Source: an uncultured Holophagaceae bacterium
GTDB taxonomy: Bacteria; Acidobacteriota; Holophagae; Holophagales; Holophagaceae
Reading direction: 5' to 3'
DNA: 64,000 nucleotides
Assembly (NCBI GenBank): GCA_963705865.1
Contig: CAVPLE010000149.1
Span: 6,402-70,401 of the forward strand
Part shown: positions 37,508-53,829 of the stretch, piece by piece
How positions within the stretch are numbered: position 1 is the stretch's first letter
Layout of the letters: each line of letters opens with the position of its first letter
Notes under the pieces: model-generated
What the model was told of the DNA's origin: nothing
The model's database searches: none
The model's input: the letters and a program-made list of their open reading frames with translations, nothing else
Position numbers and translations under genes: made by a program

Positions 37508-37801
37508 TTAATATGGCTGCAAATAGACACCGACTAAGGTTGTGAGCAGTTCCGCCATCTCTTTTAACGGGCCAGTTCCCGGTAGGGGTTCCCAGCGCCC
37601 CGTGAGCGAGTGGAAGGCCGCTCCATAGGCACCCCCTCCCAGGTCCGTGATCCGTGCCATGGTATCGGCCTCGTCATTCTGGACGAGTTGGATGATGAGG
37701 TGTTTCCCATAGGGCTTCACCCGGATCTGGTCGTGGCCCAGGATTTGTCGCAGTTGATGTTCGAGTTCAGGGGCGCGGCTGGCCGGTTTTGGTTTTGGCA
37801 T
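37508..37801 (-). CDS. Hypothetical passenger protein inside IS630 (97 aa)
   Basis: Lies within the TIRs and overlaps the transposase 3' end; RVKPYGKHLII, ARIT, GRWEPLP. Confidence 0.6.
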   Translation of the reverse strand: MPKPKPASRAPELEHQLRQILGHDQIRVKPYGKHLIIQLVQNDEADTMARITDLGGGAYGAAFHSLTGRWEPLPGTGPLKEMAELLTTLVGVYLQPY

Positions 37802-38891
37802 GGGGCGATCCTTTGGGTTCTCCAGTCTGGAGGTTGTAGCCGCGGAAACTCCATTTGAAGGGTTTCGGATTCGTGTTGCGCTTCTCAAAGAATGCATCGG
37901 TGCGGGCTTTCAGGTGAGCCTTGCTTGTGTGACTGGCATTGCGCAGGGCGCGCCGCGTGTAAACGCCGAACAGGAGTTCGATCTGATTCACCCAGGAGGC
38001 GTGAATGGGGGTGAAGTGGAAGCGAAAACGCTTGCCGTGCCGCTCGTTGAACTCCGTCCAGACGCCGGACCGGTGCGTGTTGAGATTGTCCCAGATGACG
38101 TGGATATCCCGTCCTGGGTAGGCGGCTGCCACCTGCTCCATGAAGGCCAGAAGGTCGGCCTGGGTGCGGGTGTCACCGCAGGTTGAGACCGTGCTCCCGG
38201 TATGCACGTCGAGGGCCGCAATCAGAGTCTGTGTGCCATGCCGAATATATTCGAACTCCCGCCGGCGGAAGCGGCCTGGGAGGGGTGGGCAGTCCAAGTG
38301 TTTCCTCTCCACGGCCTGGATGCTTGTCTTCTCATCGATGGACAGGACGACCGAATCCTTCGGTGCTTTCCGGTACAGATCGCAGATGACGTTCACCTTC
38401 TCGCGAAAGGCGGGATCGGGGCTATGCAGCCACTGCTGAACCCGGTGCGGGCGTAGATCCCCGGCCACCAGAATCCGGTGCAAGTGGCTCCGACTGATCT
38501 GCGAGACGACACCGCGCTCCACCGAACGCTCGACCAATTCATCCAGCGTTGGTGTGGACCTGCCACCCGCTTCGGCCGGCTCACAGGCGAGAGAAATGAC
38601 CTGAAGCCGCTCCGCAGGCGTGATGCGTCGCGGACGGCCCGAACGGTTTTGCTCGACAAGTCCGGCTAGCCCGGACCGGGCCACACGACCCCGCCAGAGG
38701 CTGACGGTCTGGACCGTCGTGTGCAACCTCTCGGCAATGGCTTCCGTGGAATCACCACGATTGGCCATCAAGGCGATCCAGGCACGGAAGACGTCCCGCT
38801 GCTCCTCTGTGCCTCGGCGCACCCGCGCCTCCAGCGACCTTCGATCCGCCGTCGAAAGCTTCACCTGTTGTGCTGGTCGTCCGCGTCCCAT
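37767..38891 (-). CDS. IS630-family DDE transposase, apparently intact
   Basis: HTH; SIDEK, EYIRHGT, WDNLNTH, SWVNQIE. Confidence 0.93.
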   Translation of the reverse strand: MGRGRPAQQVKLSTADRRSLEARVRRGTEEQRDVFRAWIALMANRGDSTEAIAERLHTTVQTVSLWRGRVARSGLAGLVEQNRSGRPRRITPAERLQVISLACEPAEAGGRSTPTLDELVERSVERGVVSQISRSHLHRILVAGDLRPHRVQQWLHSPDPAFREKVNVICDLYRKAPKDSVVLSIDEKTSIQAVERKHLDCPPLPGRFRRREFEYIRHGTQTLIAALDVHTGSTVSTCGDTRTQADLLAFMEQVAAAYPGRDIHVIWDNLNTHRSGVWTEFNERHGKRFRFHFTPIHASWVNQIELLFGVYTRRALRNASHTSKAHLKARTDAFFEKRNTNPKPFKWSFRGYNLQTGEPKGSPHAKTKTGQPRP

Positions 38892-38954: not shown

Positions 38955-39998
38955 ATGCCCGTCCCAGACAGCCCCTCACCATCCGCCGTACCCGAGACAT
39001 TTCTGAGGCGGGATCGCCTGCGCCGCTGGAAGGTCCTGGCCGGCATCGGACTCTTCTTTCTCGCCTTCGGCAGCTGCGGGGCGCTCCTGGTCATGCAACC
39101 GCTGCTCACAACCCCGCGGGGCGAGCCGGCCATCCCAGTGGAGGCGGGTCGTCTGGAAGCGCACGTGCGCTACCTCTCGGAGGCCTGCCTCCCCAGGGAT
39201 TGGCGTGGTCCAGGCCTGGCGAAGGCCGGCGAGTACATCGAGGCCGCTTTCCAGACCTCAGGGGCCCGGGTTTCCCGGCAGATCTTCGAGGTGAGGGGTC
39301 GAGTCTCCGCCAACGTCATCGGCACCTACGGCCCCGCGGGCGGGCCCCGGATCGTCGTGGGCGCCCACTACGACGCCCACGGCGAGCTCCCCGGCGCGGA
39401 TGACAACGCCAGCGGCGTGGCCTGTCTGCTGGAACTGGCCCGGGCCTTCGGTCGAATGGCGCCCGCCCAGCGCGTCGACCTGGTGGCCTACACCTTGGAG
39501 GAGCCACCCTTCTTCCGCACGCCGGAGATGGGCAGCGTCCGGCACGCCCGCCTTCTCAAAGAGGCCGGTAGCGATGTGACCGCCGTGCTCGTCCTGGAGA
39601 TGGTCGGCCGGTTCACGGAGGCCCCCGCTACCCAGCGGTACCCATCCGCGGTCTTGGATGCCCTGTACCCCGACCGCGGCGATTTTGTCCTGGTGGCCGG
39701 ACGGTTGGGCGATATCGGCCTGACCCGGCAGGTCAAGGCGGCGCTGGCGGGAACCACACCCCTGCCCGTCCGGTCCCTGAACGGGCCCCGCTGGATCCCC
39801 GGCATGGATTTCTCGGACCACTACCCCTACTGGGATCAGGGTTTCACCGCCGTCATGATCACCGACACCGCGTTCTACCGGAACACCGACTACCACACGG
39901 CCAACGACACGGCCGACCGCCTCGACTACGCCCGGATGGCCCAGGTGGTCCAGGGCGTGCATGCCGCCGTGACTCGGCTCGCAAAGCGGGCACACTAG
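38955..39998 (+). CDS. Membrane-anchored M28-family peptidase
   Basis: VGAHYD, GADDNASG, LEEPPFF, FSDH, YHTANDT. Confidence 0.9.
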   Translation: MPVPDSPSPSAVPETFLRRDRLRRWKVLAGIGLFFLAFGSCGALLVMQPLLTTPRGEPAIPVEAGRLEAHVRYLSEACLPRDWRGPGLAKAGEYIEAAFQTSGARVSRQIFEVRGRVSANVIGTYGPAGGPRIVVGAHYDAHGELPGADDNASGVACLLELARAFGRMAPAQRVDLVAYTLEEPPFFRTPEMGSVRHARLLKEAGSDVTAVLVLEMVGRFTEAPATQRYPSAVLDALYPDRGDFVLVAGRLGDIGLTRQVKAALAGTTPLPVRSLNGPRWIPGMDFSDHYPYWDQGFTAVMITDTAFYRNTDYHTANDTADRLDYARMAQVVQGVHAAVTRLAKRAH

Positions 39999-40002
39999 GG
40001 GA

Positions 40003-41412
40003 ATGGACGCCCAAGAATTCCGCCGCCTCGGTTACCAGCTCGTGGATTGGATCGCGGACTACCGCGAAAACCTCGAGCGCCTGCCTGTGATGAGCCGGGT
40101 GCAACCTGGCGAGATCCGCGCCGCCTTCCCGGACCATCCGCCCCAGCACGGGGGCCGCGTGGCCCAGGCCCTGGCGGCTCTGGAGCGGGACGTGCTGCCC
40201 GGCATCACCCACTGGAACCATCCATCCTTTTTCGCCTACTTCCCCAGCAACACCAGCTACAGCTCGATCCTCGGCGACCTTGCCGCCTCGGGCCTGGGCG
40301 CCCAGGGCATGAGCTGGCAGACCAGCCCCGCCGCCACCGAGGTCGAAGAGGTCGTCATGGACTGGCTGCGCCAGATGGTGGGCCTGAGTCCCGCCTTCAC
40401 CGGCGTCATCCACGACACCGCCAGCACCGCCACCTTCACGGCTCTGCTCTGCGCCCGGGAGAAGGTCTCGGACTACGCGCAGAACACCGAGGGCCTCCAG
40501 AGCGGCGAGGCACCCCTGGTGGTCTACGCCTCGGACCAGGCCCACAGCTCCATCGAGAAGGCGGCCCTGCTGGCGGGCTTCGGCCGCAGCTACCTGCGGC
40601 TCATCCCCACGGATGAGCATCACGCCATCCGCCTGGACCTGCTGCAGGCGGCCATCGAGAAGGATGTCGCGATCGGCCTGCGCCCCTGCGCCATCGTCGG
40701 CGCCGTGGGCACCACGGCCACCACGGCCCTGGACCCCCTGCCGGCTCTGGCGGACCTCGGGGAGAAGCACGGGATGTGGCTCCACGTGGACGCGGCCCTG
40801 GCGGGCACGGCCATGGTGCTGCCCGAGTGCCGCTGGATGTGGGAGGGCATCGAGCGGGCCGACAGCCTGGTGTTCAACCCCCACAAGTGGATGGGCGTGG
40901 GCTTCGACCTCAGCGCCTACTACGTGCGGGATCCCCAGCACCTCATCCGGGTCATGAGCACCAATCCCAGCTACCTGCGCACGGCCCAGGATGGCCAGGT
41001 GAGCAACTTCCGCGACTGGCACATCCAGCTGGGCCGCCGCTTCCGGGCCCTCAAGTTGTGGTTCTACCTCATGGACGTGGGCGTGGAAGGCCTCCAGGCC
41101 CGCATCCGCCGCGACCTGGCGAACGCCCAGTGGCTCAAGGACCAGGTGGACGCCGCCCCAGAGTGGGAGCGCCTCGCCCCGGTGCCCCTCCAGACCGTGT
41201 GCCTTCGCCATCGGCAGCCGGGCCTCGGCGAGACCGCCCTCGCCATCCACAACCTGGAGATCGCCCGCCGCATCAACGAAGGCGGCAAGGCCTACCTCAC
41301 GCCCTCCATGCTCAAGGGAAAACAGATCCTCCGCGTGAGCATCGGCGCCGAGACCACGGAGCTCAGGCATGTCGAGGCGCTCTGGGAGGCTCTGAAGCAG
41401 GCGGCAAGTTGA
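40003..41412 (+). CDS. Group II PLP-dependent (aromatic L-amino-acid/DOPA-type) decarboxylase
   Basis: PGITHWNHP, SPAATEVE, HSSIEKA, HVDAA, FNPHKW, GRRFRALKLW. Confidence 0.92.
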   Translation: MDAQEFRRLGYQLVDWIADYRENLERLPVMSRVQPGEIRAAFPDHPPQHGGRVAQALAALERDVLPGITHWNHPSFFAYFPSNTSYSSILGDLAASGLGAQGMSWQTSPAATEVEEVVMDWLRQMVGLSPAFTGVIHDTASTATFTALLCAREKVSDYAQNTEGLQSGEAPLVVYASDQAHSSIEKAALLAGFGRSYLRLIPTDEHHAIRLDLLQAAIEKDVAIGLRPCAIVGAVGTTATTALDPLPALADLGEKHGMWLHVDAALAGTAMVLPECRWMWEGIERADSLVFNPHKWMGVGFDLSAYYVRDPQHLIRVMSTNPSYLRTAQDGQVSNFRDWHIQLGRRFRALKLWFYLMDVGVEGLQARIRRDLANAQWLKDQVDAAPEWERLAPVPLQTVCLRHRQPGLGETALAIHNLEIARRINEGGKAYLTPSMLKGKQILRVSIGAETTELRHVEALWEALKQAAS

Positions 41413-41426
41413 TCTGCCATTCCCGG

Positions 41427-41455
41427 TTGCATCCTCCAGTCCGCTTCGGCACACT
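41427..41455 (+). promoter_or_regulatory. Putative sigma70 promoter of the pro leader
   Basis: TTGCAT-N17-CACACT, ending 9 nt before the leader ATG. Confidence 0.45.
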
Positions 41456-41464
41456 TGGCAGACC

Positions 41465-41536
41465 ATGATTCCTGTCGCGACCCTCAACCCGATCCCCAGC
41501 CAGCCCACCCCCGGTGCGCCGGTGGGAGGGGTCTGA
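41465..41536 (+). CDS. Putative Pro-rich leader peptide MIPVATLNPIPSQPTPGAPVGGV
   Basis: 23 codons with 6 Pro, directly upstream of an attenuator and proB. Confidence 0.65.
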   Translation: MIPVATLNPIPSQPTPGAPVGGV

Positions 41537-41565
41537 GCCCGTCGCCAAGCCGATCCGCTCACCTC

Positions 41566-41600
41566 ACCCCCGGTGCCCACCAGCCCGGGGGTTTTTCTTT
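41566..41600 (+). terminator. Attenuator terminator upstream of proB
   Basis: ACCCCCGG/CCGGGGGT stem followed by TTTTCTTT, 11 nt before the proB ATG. Confidence 0.8.
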
Positions 41601-41611
41601 CGGCAGTTCCC

Positions 41612-42460
41612 ATGACCCAAAAATCGGAAGCTTCTCTCGGCCGGGCGAACCTCTCCAGGGCGAAACGCATCGTGCTGAAGCTCGGCACACAGGTCGTGGT
41701 GGATACCGAAGGCAGGCCGGCCCTGAGCCGCCTGTACGGCCTGATGGAAACCGTGGCCGCCCTCCACCGCCGGGGGGCGCAACCCGTGCTGGTGTCTTCG
41801 GGCGCGGTGGGCCTTGGGGCCCGGCAGCTCGGCATCAAGCCCGAAGGCCTGTCGCAGAAACAGGCCTGCGCCGCGGCCGGGCAGGGCCAGCTCATGTCCA
41901 TCTACCAGGAGGGCTTCGCCCGCCTGGGCCTGTGCGCGGCCCAGGTGCTGCTCACCGAGGACGACTTCACGGATCCCCTCCGCCACGGCAACCTCCGGCG
42001 CACGCTGGAGACCTTGCTGGAACTGGGGGCGATCCCCGTGCTCAACGAGAACGACACGGTCTCCACCCTGGAGCTGGAGCGCCCTTCTCCAGGTCGCAAG
42101 CCTATCTTCAGCGACAACGACCATCTGTCGGCCCTGGTGGCCGCGCATCTCGAAGCCGACCTCCTCGTCCTCCTCTCGGACGTCACCGCCCTCCACACGC
42201 GGAACCCGGGCCTGCACGCGGACGCGGCCCCCCTGGCGGAAATCCCGTTCGGTGCGGATCTCCAGGTCACCCTCGAAGGCACCTCGGGTCGTGGCCGGGG
42301 TGGCATGGTCAGCAAAGTGGCGGCGGCCCGGGCCGCCACCCGCGCCGGAGTACCCGTGGTGCTGGCATCGGGCCTGGCCATCGGCGTGCTCGATCAGATC
42401 CTCGCCGGCGAACCCATCGGCACCCTCTTCCTCGCCGGCCCCAGGGGAGTCCCGTCATGA
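41612..42460 (+). CDS. proB: Glutamate 5-kinase (no PUA domain)
   Basis: IVLKLGT, VSSGAV, AAGQ, NENDTV, DNDHLSALVA, GRGGMVSK. Confidence 0.93.
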   Translation: MTQKSEASLGRANLSRAKRIVLKLGTQVVVDTEGRPALSRLYGLMETVAALHRRGAQPVLVSSGAVGLGARQLGIKPEGLSQKQACAAAGQGQLMSIYQEGFARLGLCAAQVLLTEDDFTDPLRHGNLRRTLETLLELGAIPVLNENDTVSTLELERPSPGRKPIFSDNDHLSALVAAHLEADLLVLLSDVTALHTRNPGLHADAAPLAEIPFGADLQVTLEGTSGRGRGGMVSKVAAARAATRAGVPVVLASGLAIGVLDQILAGEPIGTLFLAGPRGVPS

Positions 42461-43773
42461 GCGAAGCATCCTTGAGCCCCCTCCAGATCCAGGCCATGGC
42501 CCAGGCCGCCCGGGACGCGTCGCGGCGCCTGGCGACCACTTCTTCGGGGCTTCGATCGGCGGTGCTCCTGCGGCTGGCGGACCTCCTGGAAGCCCAGGCG
42601 CCCGCCCTTCTCGCGACCAACGCGGAAGATGTCGCCGCCGTCGGGAACACCCTGCCGCCCGCCACCCTCCAGCGGCTCAAGCTCGACGGCGCGAAGCTGG
42701 CGGCCATGGCCCAGGGGGTCCGCGCCGTGGCGGCCCTGCCCGACCCCCTCCACCGGGTCCAGCTGCGCCGGCTGCTGGATGACGGCCTCGAACTCACCCG
42801 CGTCGCCTGTCCCCTGGGCGTGCTTTGCGTCGTGTTCGAAGCACGGCCGGATGCTCTGATCCAGATCAGCGCCCTGGCCCTCAAGAGTGGCAACGCCGTG
42901 TTGCTCAAGGGCGGCAGCGAGGCCCGCCATTCCAACACCGCGCTGCTGGCCCTGGTCCGGCAGGCGCTGGCGGAGGAGGGGCTGCCGGAGGAGGCGGTCC
43001 AGGGCCTGCCGGATCGCGAGGCCGTCACGGCCCTGCTGTTGCGTCCCGACCTGGTGGATCTGGTGATCCCCCGCGGGTCCAGGGAGCTGGTGCAGAACCT
43101 CCAGGCCGCCACCCGGATTCCCGTGCTGGGACATGCCGACGGCATCTGCCACATGTACCTCGACGAGGCCGCGGCCACCGCCATGGCTGTGGCTCTGGTC
43201 CGGGACGCGAAGCTGCAGTACCCGGCTGCCTGCAACGCGGTGGAGACGGTCCTCATCCACCGCCGGGCCGCGGCCCGCCTGCTGCCGGCCTTGGCGGAGG
43301 ATCTCGTCCCGCGGGGCGCGGAACTGCGCGGCTGCCCCGCCTGTCTGGAGATCGTGCCCTCCCTCGGCAAGGCCACCGAGGCGGATTGGGACGCCGAGTA
43401 CGGCGCCCCCATCCTGGCCCTGAAGGTGGTGGCGGATCTCGACGGGGCCCTGGCCCACATTCGCGCCCACGGCAGCGGCCACACGGAAGCCATCGTGACC
43501 GAGGACCACGCGGCGGCCGCCCGCTTCCTGGCCGAGGTCGATGCGGCGGGCGTGTTCCACAACGCCTCCACCCGCTTCGCCGACGGCTACCGGTACGGGT
43601 TCGGCGCCGAGGTGGGCATCAGCACCGGGCGCATCCATGCCCGCGGGCCCGTCGGGCTCGAAGGCCTGCTCAGCTACCGGTACCTCCTCCTGGGCCATGG
43701 ACAGTGCGTGGAGGACTACGCCGGGCCTGCCGCCCGGCCGTTCAGGCATCTTGATTTCACCACCGAGTCATAA
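42457..43773 (+). CDS. proA: Gamma-glutamyl phosphate reductase
   Basis: [49 protein letters not shown]. Confidence 0.95.
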
Positions 43774-43894
43774 CTATCAGTTATTGATATATAACGTTCT
43801 ATAACTTGAGCCCATGACTTGGACTGGTAATCTTAACCAATGCTTGTCGCCCCCGGGTTGCCGCAGGGGCGACATTTTCGTATCGGGAGGATCC

Positions 43895-45205
43895 ATGGCT
43901 GCCCTGCTCTCCCCTGAAACGCCCGCCTTCGCCGTGCCTGAGGCCAATCTCGTCCCGGTGAGCGACCACCTGAAACGGCTGGCGCCGATTCCCGCCTCCC
44001 GCATGTTCCTCATCAACAAGTCATTGAAGGTGTTCCAGGAAAAGCAGCCGGGCGTGCCGGTCTTCGATGCCAGCCAGGGCGACGGCGGGGCCTCGCTCCC
44101 GGGCGTGCCCGAGGCGCTGCTGGACCGGGCCTTCGAGCTGCAGAAGCAGCACGGCACCGCCTACGACATGCCCTTCGGCACCGAGGCGTACCGCAAGAGC
44201 GTGGCGGAAACCTATTGGAAGCTGGCGCCGGACACGGGCTGGGGCACGGCCAATGTCATCGGCACCCAGGGCGGCCGCGACGGCCTGCAGAAGGCCTACC
44301 AGGCCATGCTGGCCCTGGGCCATGGCCGCCAGGGCGATGTCGTGGTGGTCAGTCGCGTGCCCTGGATCAGCTACAACTGGGGCCCCTACGGCATCGGCGC
44401 CAATGTGATGTGGGCCCCGGGCCGGGCGGAGGAAGGCTGGGCCTACTCCGAGGACGGTATTCGCGCCTGCGTCACGGAGGCCGCGAAGTCCAACCGCAAG
44501 ATCGCGGGCCTCGTCATCACCAGCCCCGACAATCCCACGGGCCAGACCCTCACGCTGGAACGCCAGATCGCCCTGGCCCACACCGCGCTGGAAGCCGGCG
44601 TGGCCTACGTCCTCTTCGACTGGATGTACCACGCGGTGGGTGATGGCGAGCCCTACGATGTGAATGTCCTCCTGCGCGCCTTCGAGCCCGCGCTGCGCAA
44701 GCGCCTGATGGTGCTGGATGGCCTCACCAAGAGCCTCGGCGGTTCCAACATCCGCAACTGCCATCTCCTGGCGGACTCGGAGGTGGTCAAGGTCATCGTC
44801 GCCCAGGCCTCGCACACCGTGATCCCATCCTTCTTCAGCCTGGCCGTGGCCATGGCCGCCTATGAGAAGGGCTTCGCCGCCGCCAGCGCCCCCATCGCCG
44901 GCCCCACCCGCACCAGCCGGGCCTGGCTGCGCGGCTACCTGAAAGAGCAGAAGCTCACCCACATCATCGGCCAGGGCTATTACGCCTTCATCAAAGTGGC
45001 GGATTCCTTCGCGGCCAAAGGCTGGGCCGATTCCGAGCCCATGGGCCAGTACCTGGCCGAGGAGCACGGCGTGGCCGTGGTGCCCGGTGCCTTCTTCAGC
45101 CCCTATGGCGCCGAGTGGATCCGTTTCTCCTACGCCACCCCCGTCGAACGCACCCAGGGCGCCGCCGAGCGATTGATCGAAGCTCTCAAAGAACTGGGGA
45201 AATGA
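43895..45205 (+). CDS. Divergent class I/II PLP-dependent aminotransferase
   Basis: TSPDNPTG, FDWMY, DGLTKSLGGSNIR (PLP lysine), VAVVPG, WIRFSYA. Confidence 0.85.
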   Translation: MAALLSPETPAFAVPEANLVPVSDHLKRLAPIPASRMFLINKSLKVFQEKQPGVPVFDASQGDGGASLPGVPEALLDRAFELQKQHGTAYDMPFGTEAYRKSVAETYWKLAPDTGWGTANVIGTQGGRDGLQKAYQAMLALGHGRQGDVVVVSRVPWISYNWGPYGIGANVMWAPGRAEEGWAYSEDGIRACVTEAAKSNRKIAGLVITSPDNPTGQTLTLERQIALAHTALEAGVAYVLFDWMYHAVGDGEPYDVNVLLRAFEPALRKRLMVLDGLTKSLGGSNIRNCHLLADSEVVKVIVAQASHTVIPSFFSLAVAMAAYEKGFAAASAPIAGPTRTSRAWLRGYLKEQKLTHIIGQGYYAFIKVADSFAAKGWADSEPMGQYLAEEHGVAVVPGAFFSPYGAEWIRFSYATPVERTQGAAERLIEALKELGK

Positions 45206-45220
45206 GAAAGAAGAAGGTCT

Positions 45221-45300
45221 AACCGCAGATGTCGCAGATTGCGCAGATGAAAACCAAGCAAACCTATCTGCGTCATCTGCCATCTGCGCCATCTGCGGTT
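45221..45300. repeat. REP-like doublet, family C
   Basis: AACCGCAGATGTCGCAGATTGCGCAGATG ... CATCTGCGCCATCTGCGGTT. Confidence 0.85.
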
Positions 45301-45369
45301 GATAAATCAGTTTTCCTTTTTTAAGCCACTGAGGAACTGCAAGTCTCAGCTGATTGATCCGGAGCACCC

Positions 45370-48180
45370 GTGTTCGACTTGAACGCCTTCGTCGAGAAGT
45401 TCCAGCTAGCGCGGCAGACGGCGCTGGAGACCCGACCCTCGGGCGGCCTCTGCGGGCTGGAGCTGGAGTGGAACCTGGTGGATCCGCAGTTCCGCCCGCT
45501 GCTCACCGTGGGCACCGGGCCGGATCGCATGTCGTTCGTCGACCACCTGCGGACCAAGGTGCTGGCGCCCTGGACGGAGGAGTATCACCAGCTGGAGGTC
45601 TTCCACTGGATGATCGAGTGGGTCACGCGGCCCTACCACACGCCCAAGGGCGCGGTGTACGAAGGTCGCCTGCTGGAGGCCGCCCTCATCAACGCCCTCT
45701 ACAAGGCGGGCCGCGCCTTCGGGGAACCCCTGCACTACTGGCACGGCAACCTGCTCGTGCTGCCGGAGATCGGGCCCGACTGCGTGCCCATGTCCTGGCA
45801 TCTGGCCAAGCGGCGCTACCTGCAGCGCTGCGTGGAGATCTACGGCACCGAGCTGGCCACGGCCGGCACCCACTCCAACCTGAGCCTGCCCGAGCCAATG
45901 CTGGCCTGGGACTTCATGCACCTGCCCGACGCCCAGCGCGGCGACAACCACCTGGACGCTTACAAGAACAAGGTCTACATCACCAGCACGCGACTCATGC
46001 GGGCCTTCGCGGCGCTCTTCATCGCCACCAGCGCCAGCACGCCGCTGCAGGCCTCGGAGGAGGACGGCAAGCCCGTCGTCCGCCTCACGCCCTACGAATC
46101 AGTGCGGAACCTCACCTTCCCGAACCCGCCCGCCCTGGACGTGCCGGACCTGAACCGCAGCCACGCCGACTACCTGCGCCTGTCCTACGATCTGGTCCGC
46201 CGCGGCGTGCGCTTCGGCAACAACAACTGGATCCCCGTGCGCGCCCGCTCCCAGGTCGAGCCCGTGGAGCGCCTCATCCAGGTCACCAGCGACCAGCTGC
46301 ACGACATCTACGCACGGGGCCTCTTCGCCGCCGGCGAAACCCGGAACGTCGAGGACATGGCCGCGCAGATCGAGCGGCAGAACCTCTTCGCCCGCATCGA
46401 CCTGCCCATGGCCCGCGTGGAAGTGCGCACGGATGACCCCGGTCACGAGCTGGCCCTCGATGTGGCGAACCTCACCCTCAAGCACCTGCTGCTGCTCCGC
46501 TTCTACGCGGATCCCGACTTCGCGCGCGGGTTCCGCTACGACACGGAGGACATCACCCGGGCCCGGCGCAACGAAGACCTGGCGGCCCGCGAAGGCCTGA
46601 ACGCCGTCATCGAGGATCCCCTCACCGCCAAGCCCGTGGCCATGCGCGTCTTCCTGGCCTGGACGCTGAACCAGCTGCGACCTCTGGCCGAGGCTCTCGG
46701 TTTCTGGGAAGACCTCCAGCCGCTGCAGGAGATGGTCGAAGGCGCGCCCAGCACCGCCGAGAAGATGCGCCAGCGCCTGAAGGCCAAGCTCGGCGCCTCG
46801 GACATCGTGCCGCCCGCCCTGCTCGTCGAGCTGGCGGAAGCACGGACGGCCCAGGTCCGCGAGGAAGTGGAAATCGTCACCGCCCACCTGGCGGACCTCG
46901 GCGCGGAGCAGAACAAGCTCCAGGACTTCGTGGAGCACGCCCGGGACGAGGTGCATCTGGATCCCCGGGCCCCCGTGCGATTCCGGCCCCGACCCGAGAA
47001 GCTGGTGGAATCCGGTTTCGCGACCAAGACCGCGGAAGTGCTGTCCGTCTCCCAGCGGCTGATCCGCATCCCCAGCGTCACCGCCTGCCCCGAGGAACGC
47101 ATGCCCGAGATCCACCGGGCGGCCACCTTCATCTACGACTACCTGCGCAACCATGGCGTGCCCGTCCGCTACTTCGACCAGGCCACCTTCCCGGCCGTGC
47201 TGGCCCACTTCCCCGGCGGCGAGCAGGCTCCGGTCATGCTCTGCGGCCACTTCGACGTGGTCGAGCCCGAGCCTGACGACAGCCAGTTCGAGCCGAAGAT
47301 CGAGGGCGACTACCTCTGGGGCCGCGGCTCGGCGGACATGAAGACCGTGCTCTCCACCTACCTGGTGTGGATGAAGGACACCCTCAAGAAGGGGGCTCCC
47401 TACCCGCCCGTGAGCCTCCTCATGCTCGGCAACGAGGAGAATGGCGAGCTGGAACCCATGGGCACGCCCCATGTGCTGAAACAGCTCAAGGAGGAGTGGA
47501 ACTACGAACCCTCGTTCTTCGTGGCCGGTGAACGTACCGGCGAGAAGGGTACTGAACTGTGGGGCGAGGTCTGCACCCAGAACCGGGGCGTCCTCCGCTT
47601 CGAGCTGGTGGCCAAGGGCACCCGCGGCCACAGCGGCCTGGCGGGTGGCAGTGACCTCACCGAGCGCCTGCTGGGCGCCCGCGAGGCCCTGCGCGAGATG
47701 TTCGCGAAGCGCCTCACCCTCAAAGCCTCGGACGGCTGGCAGTCCCTGGCCCGCTTCGCCTACATCCAGGTGGGCACGCCCGGCGTCTACAACATCACGC
47801 CAGACCGCGGCGCCCTGGGCGTGGAGCTCCGCCCCATCCCCCAGGACGACATCTCGAGCCTGCGCGCCGCCATCGAAGCCATGGCCGCGGAACGGGAGCT
47901 GGAATTCGTGCCCGCGGCCTGGGAACCCGGCGTGGCCTGCGATCCGGAGAACCCCTACCTCAAGGCCCTGCTGGCGGGCATCGAGGCCGCCGGCGGCGAT
48001 GTGCGCCTGGGCCGCAAGGGCGCCGGCACCTCGGCCCGCTTCGCCCCCAAGGGCCAAGGCGTGGTCTGGGGTCAGACCGGCATCGGCCCGCACGCCGCCG
48101 GGGAGCGCCACTACATCCCCAGCATTGATCCCTACTACCGGGCACTCGACGCCTTCGCAGACAAACTGAAGAAAGCGTAG
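45370..48180 (+). CDS. Fusion of a glutamate-cysteine-ligase (GCS2/YbdK-like) domain and an M20 (ArgE/DapE-like) metallohydrolase
   Basis: N-terminal GLELEW, LEVFHWMIEWVTRP, AGTHSN, WIPVR, RVEVR; C-terminal GHFDVV, GRGSADMK, NEE, GE, GHSG, HAAGE. Confidence 0.8.
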   Translation: MFDLNAFVEKFQLARQTALETRPSGGLCGLELEWNLVDPQFRPLLTVGTGPDRMSFVDHLRTKVLAPWTEEYHQLEVFHWMIEWVTRPYHTPKGAVYEGRLLEAALINALYKAGRAFGEPLHYWHGNLLVLPEIGPDCVPMSWHLAKRRYLQRCVEIYGTELATAGTHSNLSLPEPMLAWDFMHLPDAQRGDNHLDAYKNKVYITSTRLMRAFAALFIATSASTPLQASEEDGKPVVRLTPYESVRNLTFPNPPALDVPDLNRSHADYLRLSYDLVRRGVRFGNNNWIPVRARSQVEPVERLIQVTSDQLHDIYARGLFAAGETRNVEDMAAQIERQNLFARIDLPMARVEVRTDDPGHELALDVANLTLKHLLLLRFYADPDFARGFRYDTEDITRARRNEDLAAREGLNAVIEDPLTAKPVAMRVFLAWTLNQLRPLAEALGFWEDLQPLQEMVEGAPSTAEKMRQRLKAKLGASDIVPPALLVELAEARTAQVREEVEIVTAHLADLGAEQNKLQDFVEHARDEVHLDPRAPVRFRPRPEKLVESGFATKTAEVLSVSQRLIRIPSVTACPEERMPEIHRAATFIYDYLRNHGVPVRYFDQATFPAVLAHFPGGEQAPVMLCGHFDVVEPEPDDSQFEPKIEGDYLWGRGSADMKTVLSTYLVWMKDTLKKGAPYPPVSLLMLGNEENGELEPMGTPHVLKQLKEEWNYEPSFFVAGERTGEKGTELWGEVCTQNRGVLRFELVAKGTRGHSGLAGGSDLTERLLGAREALREMFAKRLTLKASDGWQSLARFAYIQVGTPGVYNITPDRGALGVELRPIPQDDISSLRAAIEAMAAERELEFVPAAWEPGVACDPENPYLKALLAGIEAAGGDVRLGRKGAGTSARFAPKGQGVVWGQTGIGPHAAGERHYIPSIDPYYRALDAFADKLKKA

Positions 48181-48673: not shown

Positions 48674-50548
48674 TCAGAAATCCAGGTTCTCCGTGATCCG
48701 CGTGCCGTCCTTCTTGAAGGTCTCAAGGAAGGTGGCGATGCGCTTCTCAGCCTCCACCAGGTGCTCGACCCCGAGGTTCAGGTTGAGCAGATCCACGTAC
48801 CAGGGGGCCTTGACCTTGCTCTGGACGTAGGTCTGGACGATGGCCCGCGCGATGGGGAGGGTGGTGGCCTTGGAGTCGTCGTGGACGTCGCGGTTGCTGG
48901 CCTTGCGGAGCTTGGCGTACTCCTCCTCCAGCAGGCGGGCGAAGAGGGCGGCCGTCAGCATGTCGCCAGCGGCGGTGCCCGTGGCGGCATCGGCCTCCGT
49001 GAAGGCGGCGCCCTTGTGCAGCCATTCCCAGAGGATGGAGAGGCGGATCTCTCCCGTGGCCATGTCTTCCATGAGGTAGAGCACGTCATCGTTGCCGAAG
49101 AAGTCGGCAGGCTTGAGGGCCGCGGCCTGGAAGCCGCGCAGGAAGGCGTTGCCGTACTGGAGGGCCACGGAGAGCAGATCCCGGGCGCCGGCGATGGTGC
49201 GGGGCGCCTTCTCCAGCATCATGAGGCCCGCAGCGTCCTCGGGCCCATAAGTCAGCGCCGGGAAGGCGCGCCCCATCTGGTTGGCCTCGCCCACACGCTC
49301 CCACACGGGCCGCACGATGTGGACCATCTTCCAGTGGGCCACCCACTTGCCCGACGCGCCCTCGCGCTGCTCGCGCTCGGCCCCGGCCACGGCGCGTTTC
49401 ATGCTGGCGGTGACGCCGGCCTCGCTGCCCACGGGGATGTTCGGCTCCATGCCGCCCTGCCAGAGGGCGAAGCGGCCGTTCCGATCCGGCGTGTTCATGG
49501 CCCGGCGCACGCGATCCTCGTAGGTCCGCATGTAGCCATAGGTCATCGTGATCGAGCTGATGTCCGGGTTCACGAAGCCCTTGTCCCAGGCAAGGGCGTC
49601 CGAGACGCTGTTGATGTAGTCCCAGCGGCCTGTGTTGAAGCCCACGAAGTGGGGTGCCAGCGCCGCGCGGATCTCCATGAGCTGGTAGCACTGCTCCAGC
49701 TGCTCCACCAGCACGTAGGCCTTGATGGTGCCCACGGCGAGGCCCAAGTGCTCCTCCAGGGCCACCAGCATGGCGTTGAAGAGGGCCGCATCCTCGGCGG
49801 TCTGGGTCTTGGGCAGGTAGAGCACGAGGCTGCGGCCCGCCACGCGGAGGCGCTCATGGTTGTTCACCACGTAAAGCACCAGGTCGGCGATGGAGGCGGA
49901 GAAGCCGTGGCCGTTCCGCCGGAGGTGGCGGTCCTCCAGATGCAGGCCGCGCACGCGGAAGATCACGGTGGTGAAGTCGAGCTGCTGCCGCCAGTCCTCG
50001 ATGATGGGGCGGCCGAAGAAACCCTTCGCCCACTGGTTCATCTCACCACTGACCTCCTCGGCCACCTCCAGGAAGAGCGGATCCCGGGCGATGGCCAGCT
50101 TGAGGTTCCGGTGGTTGTCCAACGACATGGTGTCCACCTGGCCCAGCGCGTCCTCGCCATCGAACATCCAGCCGTCCGCGCCGGAGAGCAGCGCATAGGC
50201 CACATTGCGGATGCCCGAGCGGACATCCGCGCGCGGCTTGGTGGCCGGCCCCGTGCCCTGGATCCACTGGCGCTGGAGGTCCGGTGGGATCACCGCGCCG
50301 TCGAAGTTCCCGGCGCGGGCGTCGGCGACGGTGAAGGGCTTGCCGGGGATCAGGGCGGCGGGATCCAGGAAGCCGATGCGCTCGCCTGCTTCGGCCCGGC
50401 GCTTCCGCAGGGCCAGGCGGGCGGTCATGCGCTCGCGGCGCCGGTCATCCAGGGGCGCAAGGGTCTCCAGGGCGCGGATCGCCTCCGGCGTGTAGACATC
50501 CGGGTAGCTGGACAGGACGGCGTCACGGAATTCGAGGGTCGGGGTCAT
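48674..50548 (-). CDS. Malate synthase
   Basis: MFDGED, YLPK, GFNTGRWDYINS, EDMATGEIR. Confidence 0.88.
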   Translation of the reverse strand: MTPTLEFRDAVLSSYPDVYTPEAIRALETLAPLDDRRRERMTARLALRKRRAEAGERIGFLDPAALIPGKPFTVADARAGNFDGAVIPPDLQRQWIQGTGPATKPRADVRSGIRNVAYALLSGADGWMFDGEDALGQVDTMSLDNHRNLKLAIARDPLFLEVAEEVSGEMNQWAKGFFGRPIIEDWRQQLDFTTVIFRVRGLHLEDRHLRRNGHGFSASIADLVLYVVNNHERLRVAGRSLVLYLPKTQTAEDAALFNAMLVALEEHLGLAVGTIKAYVLVEQLEQCYQLMEIRAALAPHFVGFNTGRWDYINSVSDALAWDKGFVNPDISSITMTYGYMRTYEDRVRRAMNTPDRNGRFALWQGGMEPNIPVGSEAGVTASMKRAVAGAEREQREGASGKWVAHWKMVHIVRPVWERVGEANQMGRAFPALTYGPEDAAGLMMLEKAPRTIAGARDLLSVALQYGNAFLRGFQAAALKPADFFGNDDVLYLMEDMATGEIRLSILWEWLHKGAAFTEADAATGTAAGDMLTAALFARLLEEEYAKLRKASNRDVHDDSKATTLPIARAIVQTYVQSKVKAPWYVDLLNLNLGVEHLVEAEKRIATFLETFKKDGTRITENLDF

Positions 50549-50621
50549 GGGATCACTCCGCAAGAAAGGCTGGGTCAGAAGAAACGAGAGGCTGAGGCTG
50601 TTGGAGAGGAAAGCAGATTGG

Positions 50622-52041: not shown

Positions 52042-53667
52042 TTACGGCACGAGCCCCGGGAACAGGAACGCGAAGCCGAAGACCATGAGGCCCAGCAGGA
52101 TCACGTAGGGGATCGTGTACTTGATGGTCTGCCGCATGATCAGGCCTTCCTTCCCGGCCAGGCCCACGGCGGTGGCGGCGATGACGATGCTCTGGGGCGA
52201 GATCATCTTGCCCGCGGAGGCGCCCGCGCTGCCGGCGGAGGCCATGAGGATGTCGGACAGGCCCATGCCGTTGGCGGTGAGCCGCTGCAGGTTGCCGAAG
52301 AGGGCATTGGCGGAGGTGTTGCTGCCCGTCAGGAACACGCCCAGGGTGCCGAAGAGCGGGCTGAGGAACGGGTACACGCTCCGGCTCACCAGGGCCACGA
52401 TGCCGTTGGCCATGGTGGCCACCATGGAGATCTGCTTGGTGGCGAGGTCGCCCACCACGGCCAGCTTGGTCTTGGGGTCGATGATGGGCAGGGCCAGGTT
52501 CATCACTTCGGCGATGGCGAGGATGCTGGCCACCGCGATGAAGGAGGGGATCATCTGCTTGAAGGTCTTGCCGAACTGCTCGCCCATCACCCCGTAGCTG
52601 ATGCCCATGACGGGGAAGGCGATGAGGCCCGCGATGAGCATGATGGTGCCGGGGCTCTGGAGCCAGGTGAAGGCGTAGACCTTCCCGGGGTTGTAGATCT
52701 GGGCCTTGAGGACCACCCAGTTCCAGCCGGCGGCCGCGCCGCTGAAGAGGGGCTTGGTGCTGGGCAGGTTCACGGCGATGACGAGCACCGCCAGCAGCAG
52801 GTAGGGCAGCCAGGAGAGGAACAGTTCCTTGAAGTGGAACTCGCGCCGGGCCTCGGTGGCCGGGGCCTCGCCCTCGAAGAGCCAGGGCTGGGCGCCCTTC
52901 TGGAAGTTCAGGTAGATGGCGGTGGCCACGAGGCAGATCAGGCCCGCCAGCACGGAGGTGAGATCGGCGCCGATGAAGTTGGAGACGAGGAACTGGGTGA
53001 TGGAGAAGCTGAGGCCGGTCACCAGGATGGTGCCGAGCGCCCCCTTCAGGCCCTTGGCCTTGGACATGGCGTAAACGGTGGCGAAGGCCATGATCAGCGC
53101 CAGGGGCGCCATGAAGCGGCCCGTCATCTGGGAGAGCTTCATCACATCCAGGCCCGTGGTCTTGGCCAGGGTCACCGTGGGGATGGCCAGCGAGCCGAAG
53201 GGCACGGGGCCCGTGTTGGCCACCAGGCACACCAGCGCGGCCATCATCGGGTTGTAGCCCAGGCCGATGAGGATGCTGGCGGGGATGGCCACGGGGGCGC
53301 CGAAGCCGCAGATGCCTTCGAGGAAGGCGCCGAAGCCGAAGGCGATGAGCAGGGCCTGGGCGCGGCGGTCCACGGTGAGGTTCGCCATGGCGCCCTGCAT
53401 CTTGTCCATCCAGCCCGTGACCTTCAGCACGTTGTAGACCACCAGCGCGCCGAAGGGGATGTACATGATGGGGAAGAGGCCCGTGAGCCCGCCCTGGAAA
53501 GCCGCCAGCAGCGTCACCTTCGTGGGGAAGTGGAACACCAGGATCGCCGCCAGCACCGTCACCAGCAGGGCGATGGGCGCCACCTTGGCCGCCGGTTTCA
53601 TCAGCAGCGGGATGCCGATGAGCAGCACGATGAGAGGCAGCGTGGCTGCGAGGATGCTTAAAAACAT
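52042..53667 (-). CDS. L-lactate/glycolate permease (LctP/GlcA family)
   Basis: FGFGAFLEGICGFGAP, GVFLTGSNTSAN, KMISPQSI. Confidence 0.93.
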   Translation of the reverse strand: MFLSILAATLPLIVLLIGIPLLMKPAAKVAPIALLVTVLAAILVFHFPTKVTLLAAFQGGLTGLFPIMYIPFGALVVYNVLKVTGWMDKMQGAMANLTVDRRAQALLIAFGFGAFLEGICGFGAPVAIPASILIGLGYNPMMAALVCLVANTGPVPFGSLAIPTVTLAKTTGLDVMKLSQMTGRFMAPLALIMAFATVYAMSKAKGLKGALGTILVTGLSFSITQFLVSNFIGADLTSVLAGLICLVATAIYLNFQKGAQPWLFEGEAPATEARREFHFKELFLSWLPYLLLAVLVIAVNLPSTKPLFSGAAAGWNWVVLKAQIYNPGKVYAFTWLQSPGTIMLIAGLIAFPVMGISYGVMGEQFGKTFKQMIPSFIAVASILAIAEVMNLALPIIDPKTKLAVVGDLATKQISMVATMANGIVALVSRSVYPFLSPLFGTLGVFLTGSNTSANALFGNLQRLTANGMGLSDILMASAGSAGASAGKMISPQSIVIAATAVGLAGKEGLIMRQTIKYTIPYVILLGLMVFGFAFLFPGLVP

Positions 53668-53707
53668 TGTCGACCTCCGAATCGGTTGCCAAACAGTATC
53701 GGGGGAC

Positions 53708-53829
53708 GGTCTGACCACCAAGCCAAAAACGATTTTGAGCCACAAGGGCCGGAATTGATCAGATTCCGGCCCTTGTGGCAACATCTTCCTGGATGGATTT
53801 TACCGGCGCGAATGATCGTGGTTAGACCA
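53708..53829. promoter_or_regulatory. Two FadR/GntR-type (LldR/GlcC-like) operator candidates
   Basis: GGTCTGACCA (53708-53717) and TGGTTAGACCA (53819-53829), matching TGGT-N3-ACCA. Confidence 0.55.
53739..53779. terminator. Perfect 17-bp hairpin downstream of the tricorn gene (terminator-like)
   Basis: GCCACAAGGGCCGGAAT-7 nt-ATTCCGGCCCTTGTGGC; no immediate U-tract. Confidence 0.5.

Follow-up and report, generated by a model that had tools for sequence, protein, structure and literature searches.

We analyzed a 64,000-nucleotide stretch of DNA (hereafter, the window) from an uncultured Holophagaceae bacterium (GenBank assembly GCA_963705865.1, contig CAVPLE010000149.1, positions 6,402 to 70,401 of the forward strand), and found in it a two-gene module that points to an undescribed three-step amino-acid route. 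The module consists of a dedicated aminotransferase gene (43895-45205, + strand) and a downstream fusion gene (45370-48180, + strand), whose product joins a predicted ATP-dependent carboxylate-amine ligase domain to a predicted metallo-amidohydrolase domain of the M20 family. With about even confidence, we read the fusion protein and the aminotransferase as a self-contained module of three activities, in which a substrate would be ligated to a handle molecule, transaminated and released by hydrolysis, and the handle would be recycled. The three enzymes occur together across Acidobacteriota, Chloroflexota and candidate-phylum bacteria, and would represent primary metabolism that is missing from pathway maps.

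The window derives from a Geothrix genome (3.4 Mb, 202 contigs, 92% complete), in which the fusion gene is single-copy. Translation of 45370-48180 yielded a single stop-free frame of 936 amino acids, as described in an earlier reading of the window that was made from the letters alone (hereafter, the sequence-only reading). Its GTG start agrees with the N-termini of homologues of 933-942 amino acids. The closest relatives of the fusion were found in Geothrix fuzhouensis (98% identity), and they carry generic names such as 'M20/M25/M40 family metallo-hydrolase'. Labels now in use, such as 'M20 family metallo-hydrolase' or 'succinyl-diaminopimelate desuccinylase', mislead pathway reconstruction in the groups that carry the module.

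Distribution and conserved gene order of the module

A scan with one genome per species identified relatives of the fusion in 394 species genomes, mostly from Holophagaceae (Acidobacteriota), Anaerolineae and other Chloroflexota; therefore, the gene is not an assembly chimera. When the N-terminal domain was searched with HMMER against 1.84 billion cluster representatives, just 144 proteins were retrieved, most of them fragments of the fusion family. Of 201 sampled Acidobacteriota genomes, 21 have the ligase domain, including all seven from Geothrix, 12 of 14 from a second family and one of three from a third; it was absent from the four sister genera sampled in the Geothrix family. The occurrence is patchy, and the 60-65% identity between phyla points to a unit under strong constraint that has spread laterally.

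The pairing of the two genes, whose co-occurrence the sequence-only reading had left to a survey across genomes, proved to be general. In a tblastn analysis of the window proteins covering 80 loci, the aminotransferase gene lay directly upstream of the fusion and on the same strand at every locus with sufficient flanking sequence. Clustering of open reading frames (ORFs) from 26 distant loci placed the aminotransferase and the fusion clusters in 25 loci each (the two paired in 25 of 25), and any other neighbour in at most seven. The pairing persists down to approximately 25% identity: the partner is kept by a 952-aa fusion (44% identity) and by a 997-aa fusion (26% identity), the latter between pyrC and pyrB/carA. 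In other loci the three proteins are encoded by separate genes, in the order ligase-aminotransferase-M20 (L090) or aminotransferase-ligase-M20 (L092, within a pyr cluster; L093, from a Gracilibacteria genome; and L095), and a further trio (L091) adjoins purC, purE, purB and purA. The aminotransferases of these split trios are homologous to each other and to that of the window, and therefore all three protein lineages have diverged together. Since the linkage holds in both distant and split versions, the conserved unit is, as judged from gene order, the aminotransferase plus the predicted ligase plus the predicted deacylase.

The sequence-only reading had proposed that a substrate is (gamma-)glutamylated for the aminotransferase and then deprotected, or that the fusion serves a non-glutathione thiol or a dipeptide. 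Of the protect-and-deprotect idea, the part that stands is that the three enzymes behave as one unit; the identity of the acyl group does not, as nothing in our analysis points to gamma-glutamyl. A thiol substrate is likewise unsupported, with no co-occurring cysteine, glutathione or ergothioneine genes. That reading had also named three findings by which it would fall (an N-terminal domain of another fold, a chimeric join, and homologues existing only as unlinked genes with no conserved aminotransferase neighbour), and none of them was made.

The predicted ligase domain

Residues 1-545 of the fusion (45370-47004, + strand) constitute a predicted ATP-dependent carboxylate-amine ligase domain of the GCL/YbdK (glutamine-synthetase-like) fold. 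An AlphaFold2 model of these residues, built on 34 sequences down to approximately 20% identity, reached a predicted local distance difference test (pLDDT) value of 90.7 and a predicted template modelling score (pTM) of 0.92. Its top Foldseek matches were YbdK structures (1tt4/1r8g; E 1e-10; template modelling score of 0.72-0.76 on the target), followed by GshA, GshF, plant and yeast GCL, and then PafA/Dop and glutamine synthetase, with a Foldseek probability of 1.00 for YbdK, GshA and GshF. The fold that the sequence-only reading had assumed for this half is thus the one predicted by the model.

At the sequence level the relationship is remote. A Pfam scan of the N-terminal half, PF04107 included, gave no match at E<0.1, and a family profile searched against PDB found YbdK at E 0.13. 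NCBIfam GCS2 models matched weakly but collinearly (residues 194-313 and 350-494), with scores of 18-31 bits against cut-offs of 176-427, so that the family threshold was not reached. Because these scores fall below the curated thresholds, the domain is best described as a distant member of the superfamily and was not filed as YbdK. Of the families against which the sequence-only reading had suggested running HMMER, only Peptidase_M20 scored above its Pfam cut-off (see below).

The GhExE signature, which defines the carboxylate-amine ligase superfamily (PMC2588565), is present as G29-L-E31-L-E33. Further motif residues are E76, M81-I82-E83, T86, P88, G166, H168, N170, W287, V290, R291, R349, E351 and R353; all motifs that the sequence-only reading had listed for this half were found, and they are invariant in two family alignments (A1 and A3). 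In the 34-sequence alignment, GhExE, E83, H168, N170, R246, R291, E351 and R353 are kept to approximately 20% identity; the residues used to judge membership (G29-L-E31-L-E33, E83, H168, E351 and R353) show no variation or almost none. By analogy with the superfamily, the expected chemistry proceeds through an acyl-phosphate intermediate with formation of ADP.

A GCS2-type protein of 458 aa, homologous to the ligase domain at 33% identity, was also observed on a contig of phage-like appearance (L089, carrying P0150), with some 30 tiny same-strand ORFs and a macro-domain gene. Among protein atlas entries, giant-virus clusters were found near the ligase domain.

The predicted M20 amidohydrolase domain

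The C-terminal half (residues 546-936; 47005-48180 with the stop codon, + strand) is a predicted metallo-amidohydrolase domain of the DapE/ArgE type. Pfam Peptidase_M20 (PF01546) matched residues 623-928 with 61.7 bits (cut-off 24.6). The complete set of ArgE/DapE-type ligands noted in the sequence-only reading was borne out by alignment with solved DapE and 2rb7, to which H627/D629, D656, E689/E690, E721, H754 and H908 align within the motifs GH(T)D, GRGSADMK, (D/E)EE, GE, GH and a C-terminal His. All ligand, catalytic and lid residues are invariant in family alignment A1. The M20_dimer model scored 18.3 bits, under its cut-off of 21; conservation was nevertheless seen for the lid motif GxxGH (H754), which lines up with that of DapE. 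The best NCBIfam models for this half are DapE, ArgE and LysK, all far under their cut-offs; the DapE equivalogs NF009557 and TIGR01246 were not reached (86.5 vs 284 and 56.1 vs 361.8 bits, respectively). DapE/ArgE-type M20 enzymes cleave N-acyl-alpha-amino acids, not primary amides.

The dedicated aminotransferase

The upstream gene (43895-45205, + strand) encodes a 436-aa class I aminotransferase, dependent on pyridoxal phosphate (PLP) and resembling aspartate aminotransferases (AspATs) of subgroup Ib. Its likely start is the ATG at 43895, which is preceded by a GGGAGG ribosome-binding site; a longer ORF begins at 43814. The same-strand class I/II aminotransferase that the sequence-only reading had placed here is real, with a PF00155 score of 82.8 bits (cut-off 19.7). 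Its nearest solved relatives are the aspartate aminotransferases 1j32 and 1bkg (subgroup Ib) and an aromatic aminotransferase. The protein falls below all NCBIfam equivalog cut-offs, the best AspAT models giving 54-75 bits vs 550-624, and it is, on these profile scores, a separate and dedicated subfamily. Alignment to 1j32 and 1bkg revealed that it keeps the asparagine of the NPTG motif, the Asp/Tyr pair, the PLP lysine, and the arginines that bind phosphate and carboxylate. At the position of Lys109 in the Thermus AspAT, which we take to bind the distal carboxylate in subgroup Ib, it has an arginine that is retained in the split-trio aminotransferases. This replacement points to a second anionic group on the substrate.

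A strong class Ib AspAT-like gene was detected in 179 of the 201 sampled Acidobacteriota genomes, but in only one of seven Geothrix genomes and not in the window's own genome (the tally includes one unpublished genome, G030, on which no claim rests). Apart from it, the class I/II complement of G. fuzhouensis consists of an AlaAT-like protein, three MocR-type regulators, two HisC-like proteins and one further aminotransferase. Given so few other AspAT candidates, the aminotransferase of the module may be a main aspartate aminotransferase in Geothrix. A simple AspAT replacement, which would fit Geothrix, is contradicted by the second Acidobacteriota family, where the module (12 of 14 genomes) and a canonical AspAT-like gene (13 of 14) are held together.

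Upstream regulatory sequences

In Anaerolineae, complete leader peptides precede the module in 14 loci. They are 29-38 codons long and contain runs of ACC/ACT and AAT/AAC, and in nine of the 14 a single Asp codon lies directly before or inside the Thr/Asn run; a looser screen flagged a Thr/Asn-rich window upstream of the aminotransferase in 16 of 26 Chloroflexota-type loci. Each leader is followed by a canonical GC-rich hairpin and a T-run that ends a few bases before the ribosome-binding site of the aminotransferase. These leaders have the form of classical attenuators, which a shortage of threonyl- or asparaginyl-tRNA should open. So placed ahead of the module, a Thr/Asn leader and terminator indicate that its product most likely feeds the aspartate family, as aspartate itself or through asparagine/threonine supply. 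Predicted control of one class of modules by an amino-acid-sensing attenuator also fits a role in primary metabolism. No leader peptides were seen outside Anaerolineae, and the gap between proA and the aminotransferase in Holophagaceae holds none of this kind. An Rfam scan upstream of the module at 15 other loci found neither riboswitch nor T-box.

The module of the window has a 5' region of its own. A promoter-like site (43806-43833, + strand) comprises TTGAGC (43806-43811), a 16-nt spacer and an extended -10 element, TGgTAATCT (43825-43833). In an alignment of 24 Holophagaceae loci (A4), the six specified positions of TGnTAnnCT never vary, and a promoter function is inferred from this conservation; a consensus promoter scanner missed the site, which matches at eight of 12 positions. 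It is followed by a hairpin in the 5' untranslated region (UTR), called as terminator-like (43846-43883, + strand), in which GTCGCCCC pairs with GGGGCGAC (43846-43853 with 43866-43873) ahead of a U-rich tail, ATTTTCGTAT. Every cell of the stem (43846-43873) pairs in the 24 sequences, with compensatory changes at three pairs. The promoter-like and hairpin element stays with the aminotransferase even where the upstream gene is not proA. An Rfam scan of the Geothrix 5' UTR gave no family match, and 43806-43883 may represent an attenuator not yet recognised, or a 5' element to which a protein binds. With its own conserved promoter-like site and hairpin, the module is therefore not simply part of proBA; in the window it would form a transcription unit of its own from a predicted promoter, with a weak link to proBA.

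The 165-nt spacer between the aminotransferase and fusion genes holds an inverted repeat (45221-45300) resembling repetitive extragenic palindromic (REP) elements. Its two 22-nt arms (45221-45242 and 45279-45300) are 91% complementary and contain nested shorter repeats; this is the feature that the sequence-only reading had called a REP doublet.

Canonical amino-acid routes in genomes with the module

The lys operon of Geothrix is complete (DapE-like M20, asd, lysine-sensitive aspartokinase, dapB, dapA, dapD, DapC-like aminotransferase and lysA), with dapD at 292 bits (cut-off 204). In one module-bearing Chloroflexota genome a strong DapL-like gene was found (435 bits), and dapB was not found in this genome or in two small genomes with split trios. 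A role of the module in filling a gap in the lysine/diaminopimelate (DAP) pathway was rejected on these grounds.

ArgJ was not found in five module-bearing genomes. The arg cluster of G. fuzhouensis (L087) contains argF' (N-acetylornithine carbamoyltransferase, 394 bits vs a cut-off of 288), argB, an ArgE-like deacylase, argH, argG and argC; ArgA, ArgJ and ArgD were not seen in it, and it includes a 359-aa gene without a family match. Because of the N-acetylornithine carbamoyltransferase, arginine synthesis in Geothrix appears to proceed by the acetylcitrulline route, and free ornithine would then be no intermediate. An arginine gap is unsupported, since the arg genes of Geothrix are clustered elsewhere, even though ArgJ was not found. 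Gaps in asparagine and threonine synthesis are equally unsupported, as Geothrix has AsnB and AsnRS, and thrB and thrC; AsnB is also present in another module-bearing Chloroflexota genome. The module therefore fills no gap in the lysine, arginine, threonine or asparagine pathways of Geothrix, because the canonical genes are present.

Proposed reaction sequence and alternatives

In the sequence that we favour, the ligase domain would first form an N-acyl-amino-acid-type amide. The aminotransferase would then convert a 2-oxo-acid function carried on this amide into an alpha-amino acid function, a step proposed because of the obligatory linkage and intact active site of the aminotransferase. Finally, the C-terminal M20 domain, given its DapE/ArgE-like ligands, would hydrolyse the amide, freeing the product and returning the handle molecule to the ligase domain; such recycling would account for the fusion of the two domains. 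The net result would be an irreversible amination step paid for by ATP. Two sub-variants can be drawn. The first resembles the DAP branch, in that an acyl group would protect an amino-oxo-acid. In the second, a common oxo-dicarboxylate would be amidated at its distal carboxylate, following the logic of glutamine transaminase/omega-amidase and amounting to ATP-driven transamination. A specific and so far undescribed form of the latter, which we consider improbable though not negligible, is a cycle in which the ligase domain would amidate the distal carboxylate of oxaloacetate or 2-oxoglutarate with a bound amino-acid handle, the dedicated aminotransferase would turn the oxo-amide into an amino-amide, and the M20 domain would release aspartate or glutamate and pass the handle back to the ligase. 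If this were true, the cell would spend one ATP on the irreversible capture of an oxo acid that is scarce or unstable, at times when amino acids of the aspartate family are short.

Several points weigh against this interpretation. The conversion of oxaloacetate to aspartate thermodynamically needs no ATP, and in the second Acidobacteriota family the module coexists with the canonical AspAT-like gene. The link to aspartate comes from the regulation of one class and from heterogeneous neighbourhoods. Some of the neighbours lead elsewhere: proBA adjoins the module in the window, an aromatic-amino-acid decarboxylase gene lies near it in most Holophagaceae (directly upstream in L035), and PheRS and chorismate mutase/DAHP synthase genes occur near it in another context. 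A predicted complex of the aminotransferase with the ligase domain scored 0.00, which speaks neither for nor against binding, and a full-length AlphaFold model from 14 close sequences (pLDDT 53) was too poor for use, so that the relative placement of the two active sites is not derivable from it.

Among the alternatives, the make-and-break of a dipeptide of the gamma-glutamyl or beta-aspartyl type, which would serve as a store, osmolyte or signal, is unlikely but credible; it corresponds to the second option of the sequence-only reading. Here the aminotransferase would merely supply or remove one of the amino acids, the M20 domain would degrade the dipeptide or trim related peptides, and the amide itself would not be transaminated. 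GCL-fold enzymes typically make gamma-glutamyl amides, M20 enzymes include dipeptidases, and a PGA_cap gene lies downstream of the module at one locus. However, a synthetase fused to a hydrolase of the same bond would run a futile cycle unless a step intervened, and the strict co-inheritance and co-divergence of the aminotransferase over large distances, reduced genomes included, would be left without explanation; nor does any transporter or regulator consistently co-occur. If instead the N-terminal domain were an ADP-forming asparagine synthetase acting on aspartate and ammonia, with the aminotransferase as AspAT and the M20 domain delivering ammonia or being unrelated, the Asn, Thr and Asp codons of the leaders and the glutamine-synthetase-like fold would be accommodated, as would a Chloroflexota genome that has AsnRS with no AsnB over the cut-off, and GatB and YqeY near the trio in Gracilibacteria. 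We find this highly improbable, because AsnB is present in Geothrix and elsewhere among carriers, the M20 type does not act on primary amides, and a strictly conserved hydrolase would be left without a reason.

A companion finding of the sequence-only reading took 40003-48180 as an ornithine/arginine-type route, in which proB and proA would supply kinase and reductase, followed by the aminotransferase, and the ligase and deacylase would replace ArgA/ArgJ and ArgE. Directly upstream of the module and on its strand lie proB (41573-42460, without a PUA domain; 251.6 bits vs a cut-off of 186) and proA (42457-43773; 518 bits vs 289), ArgJ was not found in the five genomes mentioned above, and the acetylcitrulline route of Geothrix would leave free ornithine out. 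Against these stand the proBA neighbourhood, which is restricted to Holophagaceae and incomplete even there; proA itself, the only copy in the genome, which by its true-ProA score is a housekeeping gene; the promoter-like site and hairpin between proA and the aminotransferase; argB, argC, argG, argH and the ArgE-like deacylase elsewhere in Geothrix; and leaders that are rich in Thr/Asn rather than Arg. This route is disfavoured and in our view very unlikely. A ligase-dependent DAP/lysine branch would have the ligase acting for DapD (on 2-amino-6-oxopimelate with ATP), the aminotransferase as DapC and the M20 domain as DapE. The M20 domain is nearest DapE, class I aminotransferases act as DapC/PatA in some bacteria, and aspartokinase, asd and a LysE-type exporter lie near some Anaerolineae loci. 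The complete lys operon of Geothrix, the DapL-like gene of one Chloroflexota genome, the three genomes without dapB and the absence of a Lys run from the leaders make this branch scarcely probable, and we disfavour it. The ligate-transaminate-hydrolyse route can be tested directly, as cultured Geothrix isolates carry the module.

Gene neighbourhood

The genes proB, proA, the decarboxylase and an M28 peptidase adjoin the module solely in Holophagaceae, some of which lack proBA at this position; proB and proA are absent from Chloroflexota and split-trio loci. A 772-aa 'aldehyde dehydrogenase' (Aldedh) ORF at 41455-43773 is a wrong-frame artefact of high G+C content over proB and proA. The decarboxylase gene (40003-41412) is preceded by the M28 peptidase gene (38955-39998). 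With 621 bits to 7xin, a bacterial DOPA decarboxylase, its product is a decarboxylase of aromatic L-amino acids, and an assignment to aspartate or diaminobutyrate was rejected. A transposase gene of the IS630 type (37767-38891, - strand; DDE_3 and HTH domains) lies immediately before the gene for the M28 peptidase, on its upstream side. On the other side, a malate-synthase-like gene (48674-50563, - strand; TIGR barrel, 142.7 bits) converges on the fusion, a position that it holds in most Holophagaceae loci, and is followed by a lactate permease gene (52042-53784, - strand).

In unrelated lineages, genes for users of aspartate are often neighbours of the module, namely pyrB/pyrC/carA, purC/purB/purA, the group of aspartokinase, asd and a LysE/RhtB-type exporter at some Anaerolineae loci, and, beside the 952-aa fusion, a 308-aa class II synthetase-like (AspRS/AsnA-like) gene.

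At one locus (L103, the contig carrying P0184), a chorismate mutase/DAHP synthase gene converges on a 907-aa fusion, and gene calls are fragmented or run together, with L35, L20 and PheRS in one product, which suggests an organism with a recoded stop codon. Shortly downstream of the fusion in several Chloroflexota loci (L054, L068, L072 and L053) is a tRNA with a CAT anticodon, and tRNA-Asp is also present in one locus.

Comparison with known systems

A full-text literature search returned no description of the ligase-M20 fusion architecture, in agreement with the sequence-only reading, which knew of no characterised protein of this kind. What the window adds is the completeness of the lysine, arginine, threonine and asparagine routes in Geothrix, and the module's own promoter-like site with a covarying 5' hairpin. 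Also new are the way in which the module is distributed among Acidobacteriota, its partly inverse occurrence with canonical AspAT, and the lack of dapB in small genomes with the trio.

The ligase domain shares the GCL fold and the GhExE signature with YbdK/GCS2 ligases and GshA (PF04107; 1r8g, 1tt4, 1v4g, 2d32), to which its sequence similarity is marginal. It exceeds YbdK by approximately 170 residues and, unlike it, is joined to a hydrolase and always accompanied by an aminotransferase. The M20 half has the two-metal ligands, the catalytic Glu and the lid GH motif of DapE, ArgE and LysK (7t1q, 4o23, 2rb7), but lies well below every equivalog cut-off, and in Geothrix the lys and arg operons have a DapE-like and an ArgE-like gene of their own.

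As a pathway, the module follows the logic of forming an amide, transaminating and hydrolysing with an M20 enzyme that is known from ArgA/J-ArgB-ArgC-ArgD-ArgE, DapD-DapC-DapE and LysX-LysZ-LysY-LysJ-LysK with its LysW carrier. As in the Arg and Lys types, an acylating enzyme, an aminotransferase and an M20 deacylase are encoded together; no dedicated kinase or reductase (ArgB/ArgC, LysZ/LysY) belongs to the conserved unit. The gene tables of the fetched loci held no small conserved ORF that could be a LysW-type carrier, although no search was aimed at LysW. As a further difference from these acyl-protected routes, the module is found both in genomes where the canonical routes are present and in genomes where their upstream steps are missing. 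A second parallel is the glutamine transaminase/omega-amidase (glutaminase II) pathway, in which an amide-bearing acid is transaminated and the amide is then hydrolysed, making the transamination irreversible (PMC10452834). Its amidase is of the nitrilase family and no ATP-dependent ligase takes part in it, and the likeness is one of logic, as nothing ties the module to 2-oxoglutaramate or 2-oxosuccinamate. In ArgJ, one protein serves both the protecting and the deprotecting step, analogous to the fused ligase and M20 domains. Acyl-protected routes acylate by means of an acyl-CoA transferase or an ATP-grasp ligase, whereas the acylating enzyme of the module has a predicted GCL fold; if such a ligase does replace the acyl-CoA transferase, or drives transamination with ATP, it would represent a new solution to an old biochemical problem.

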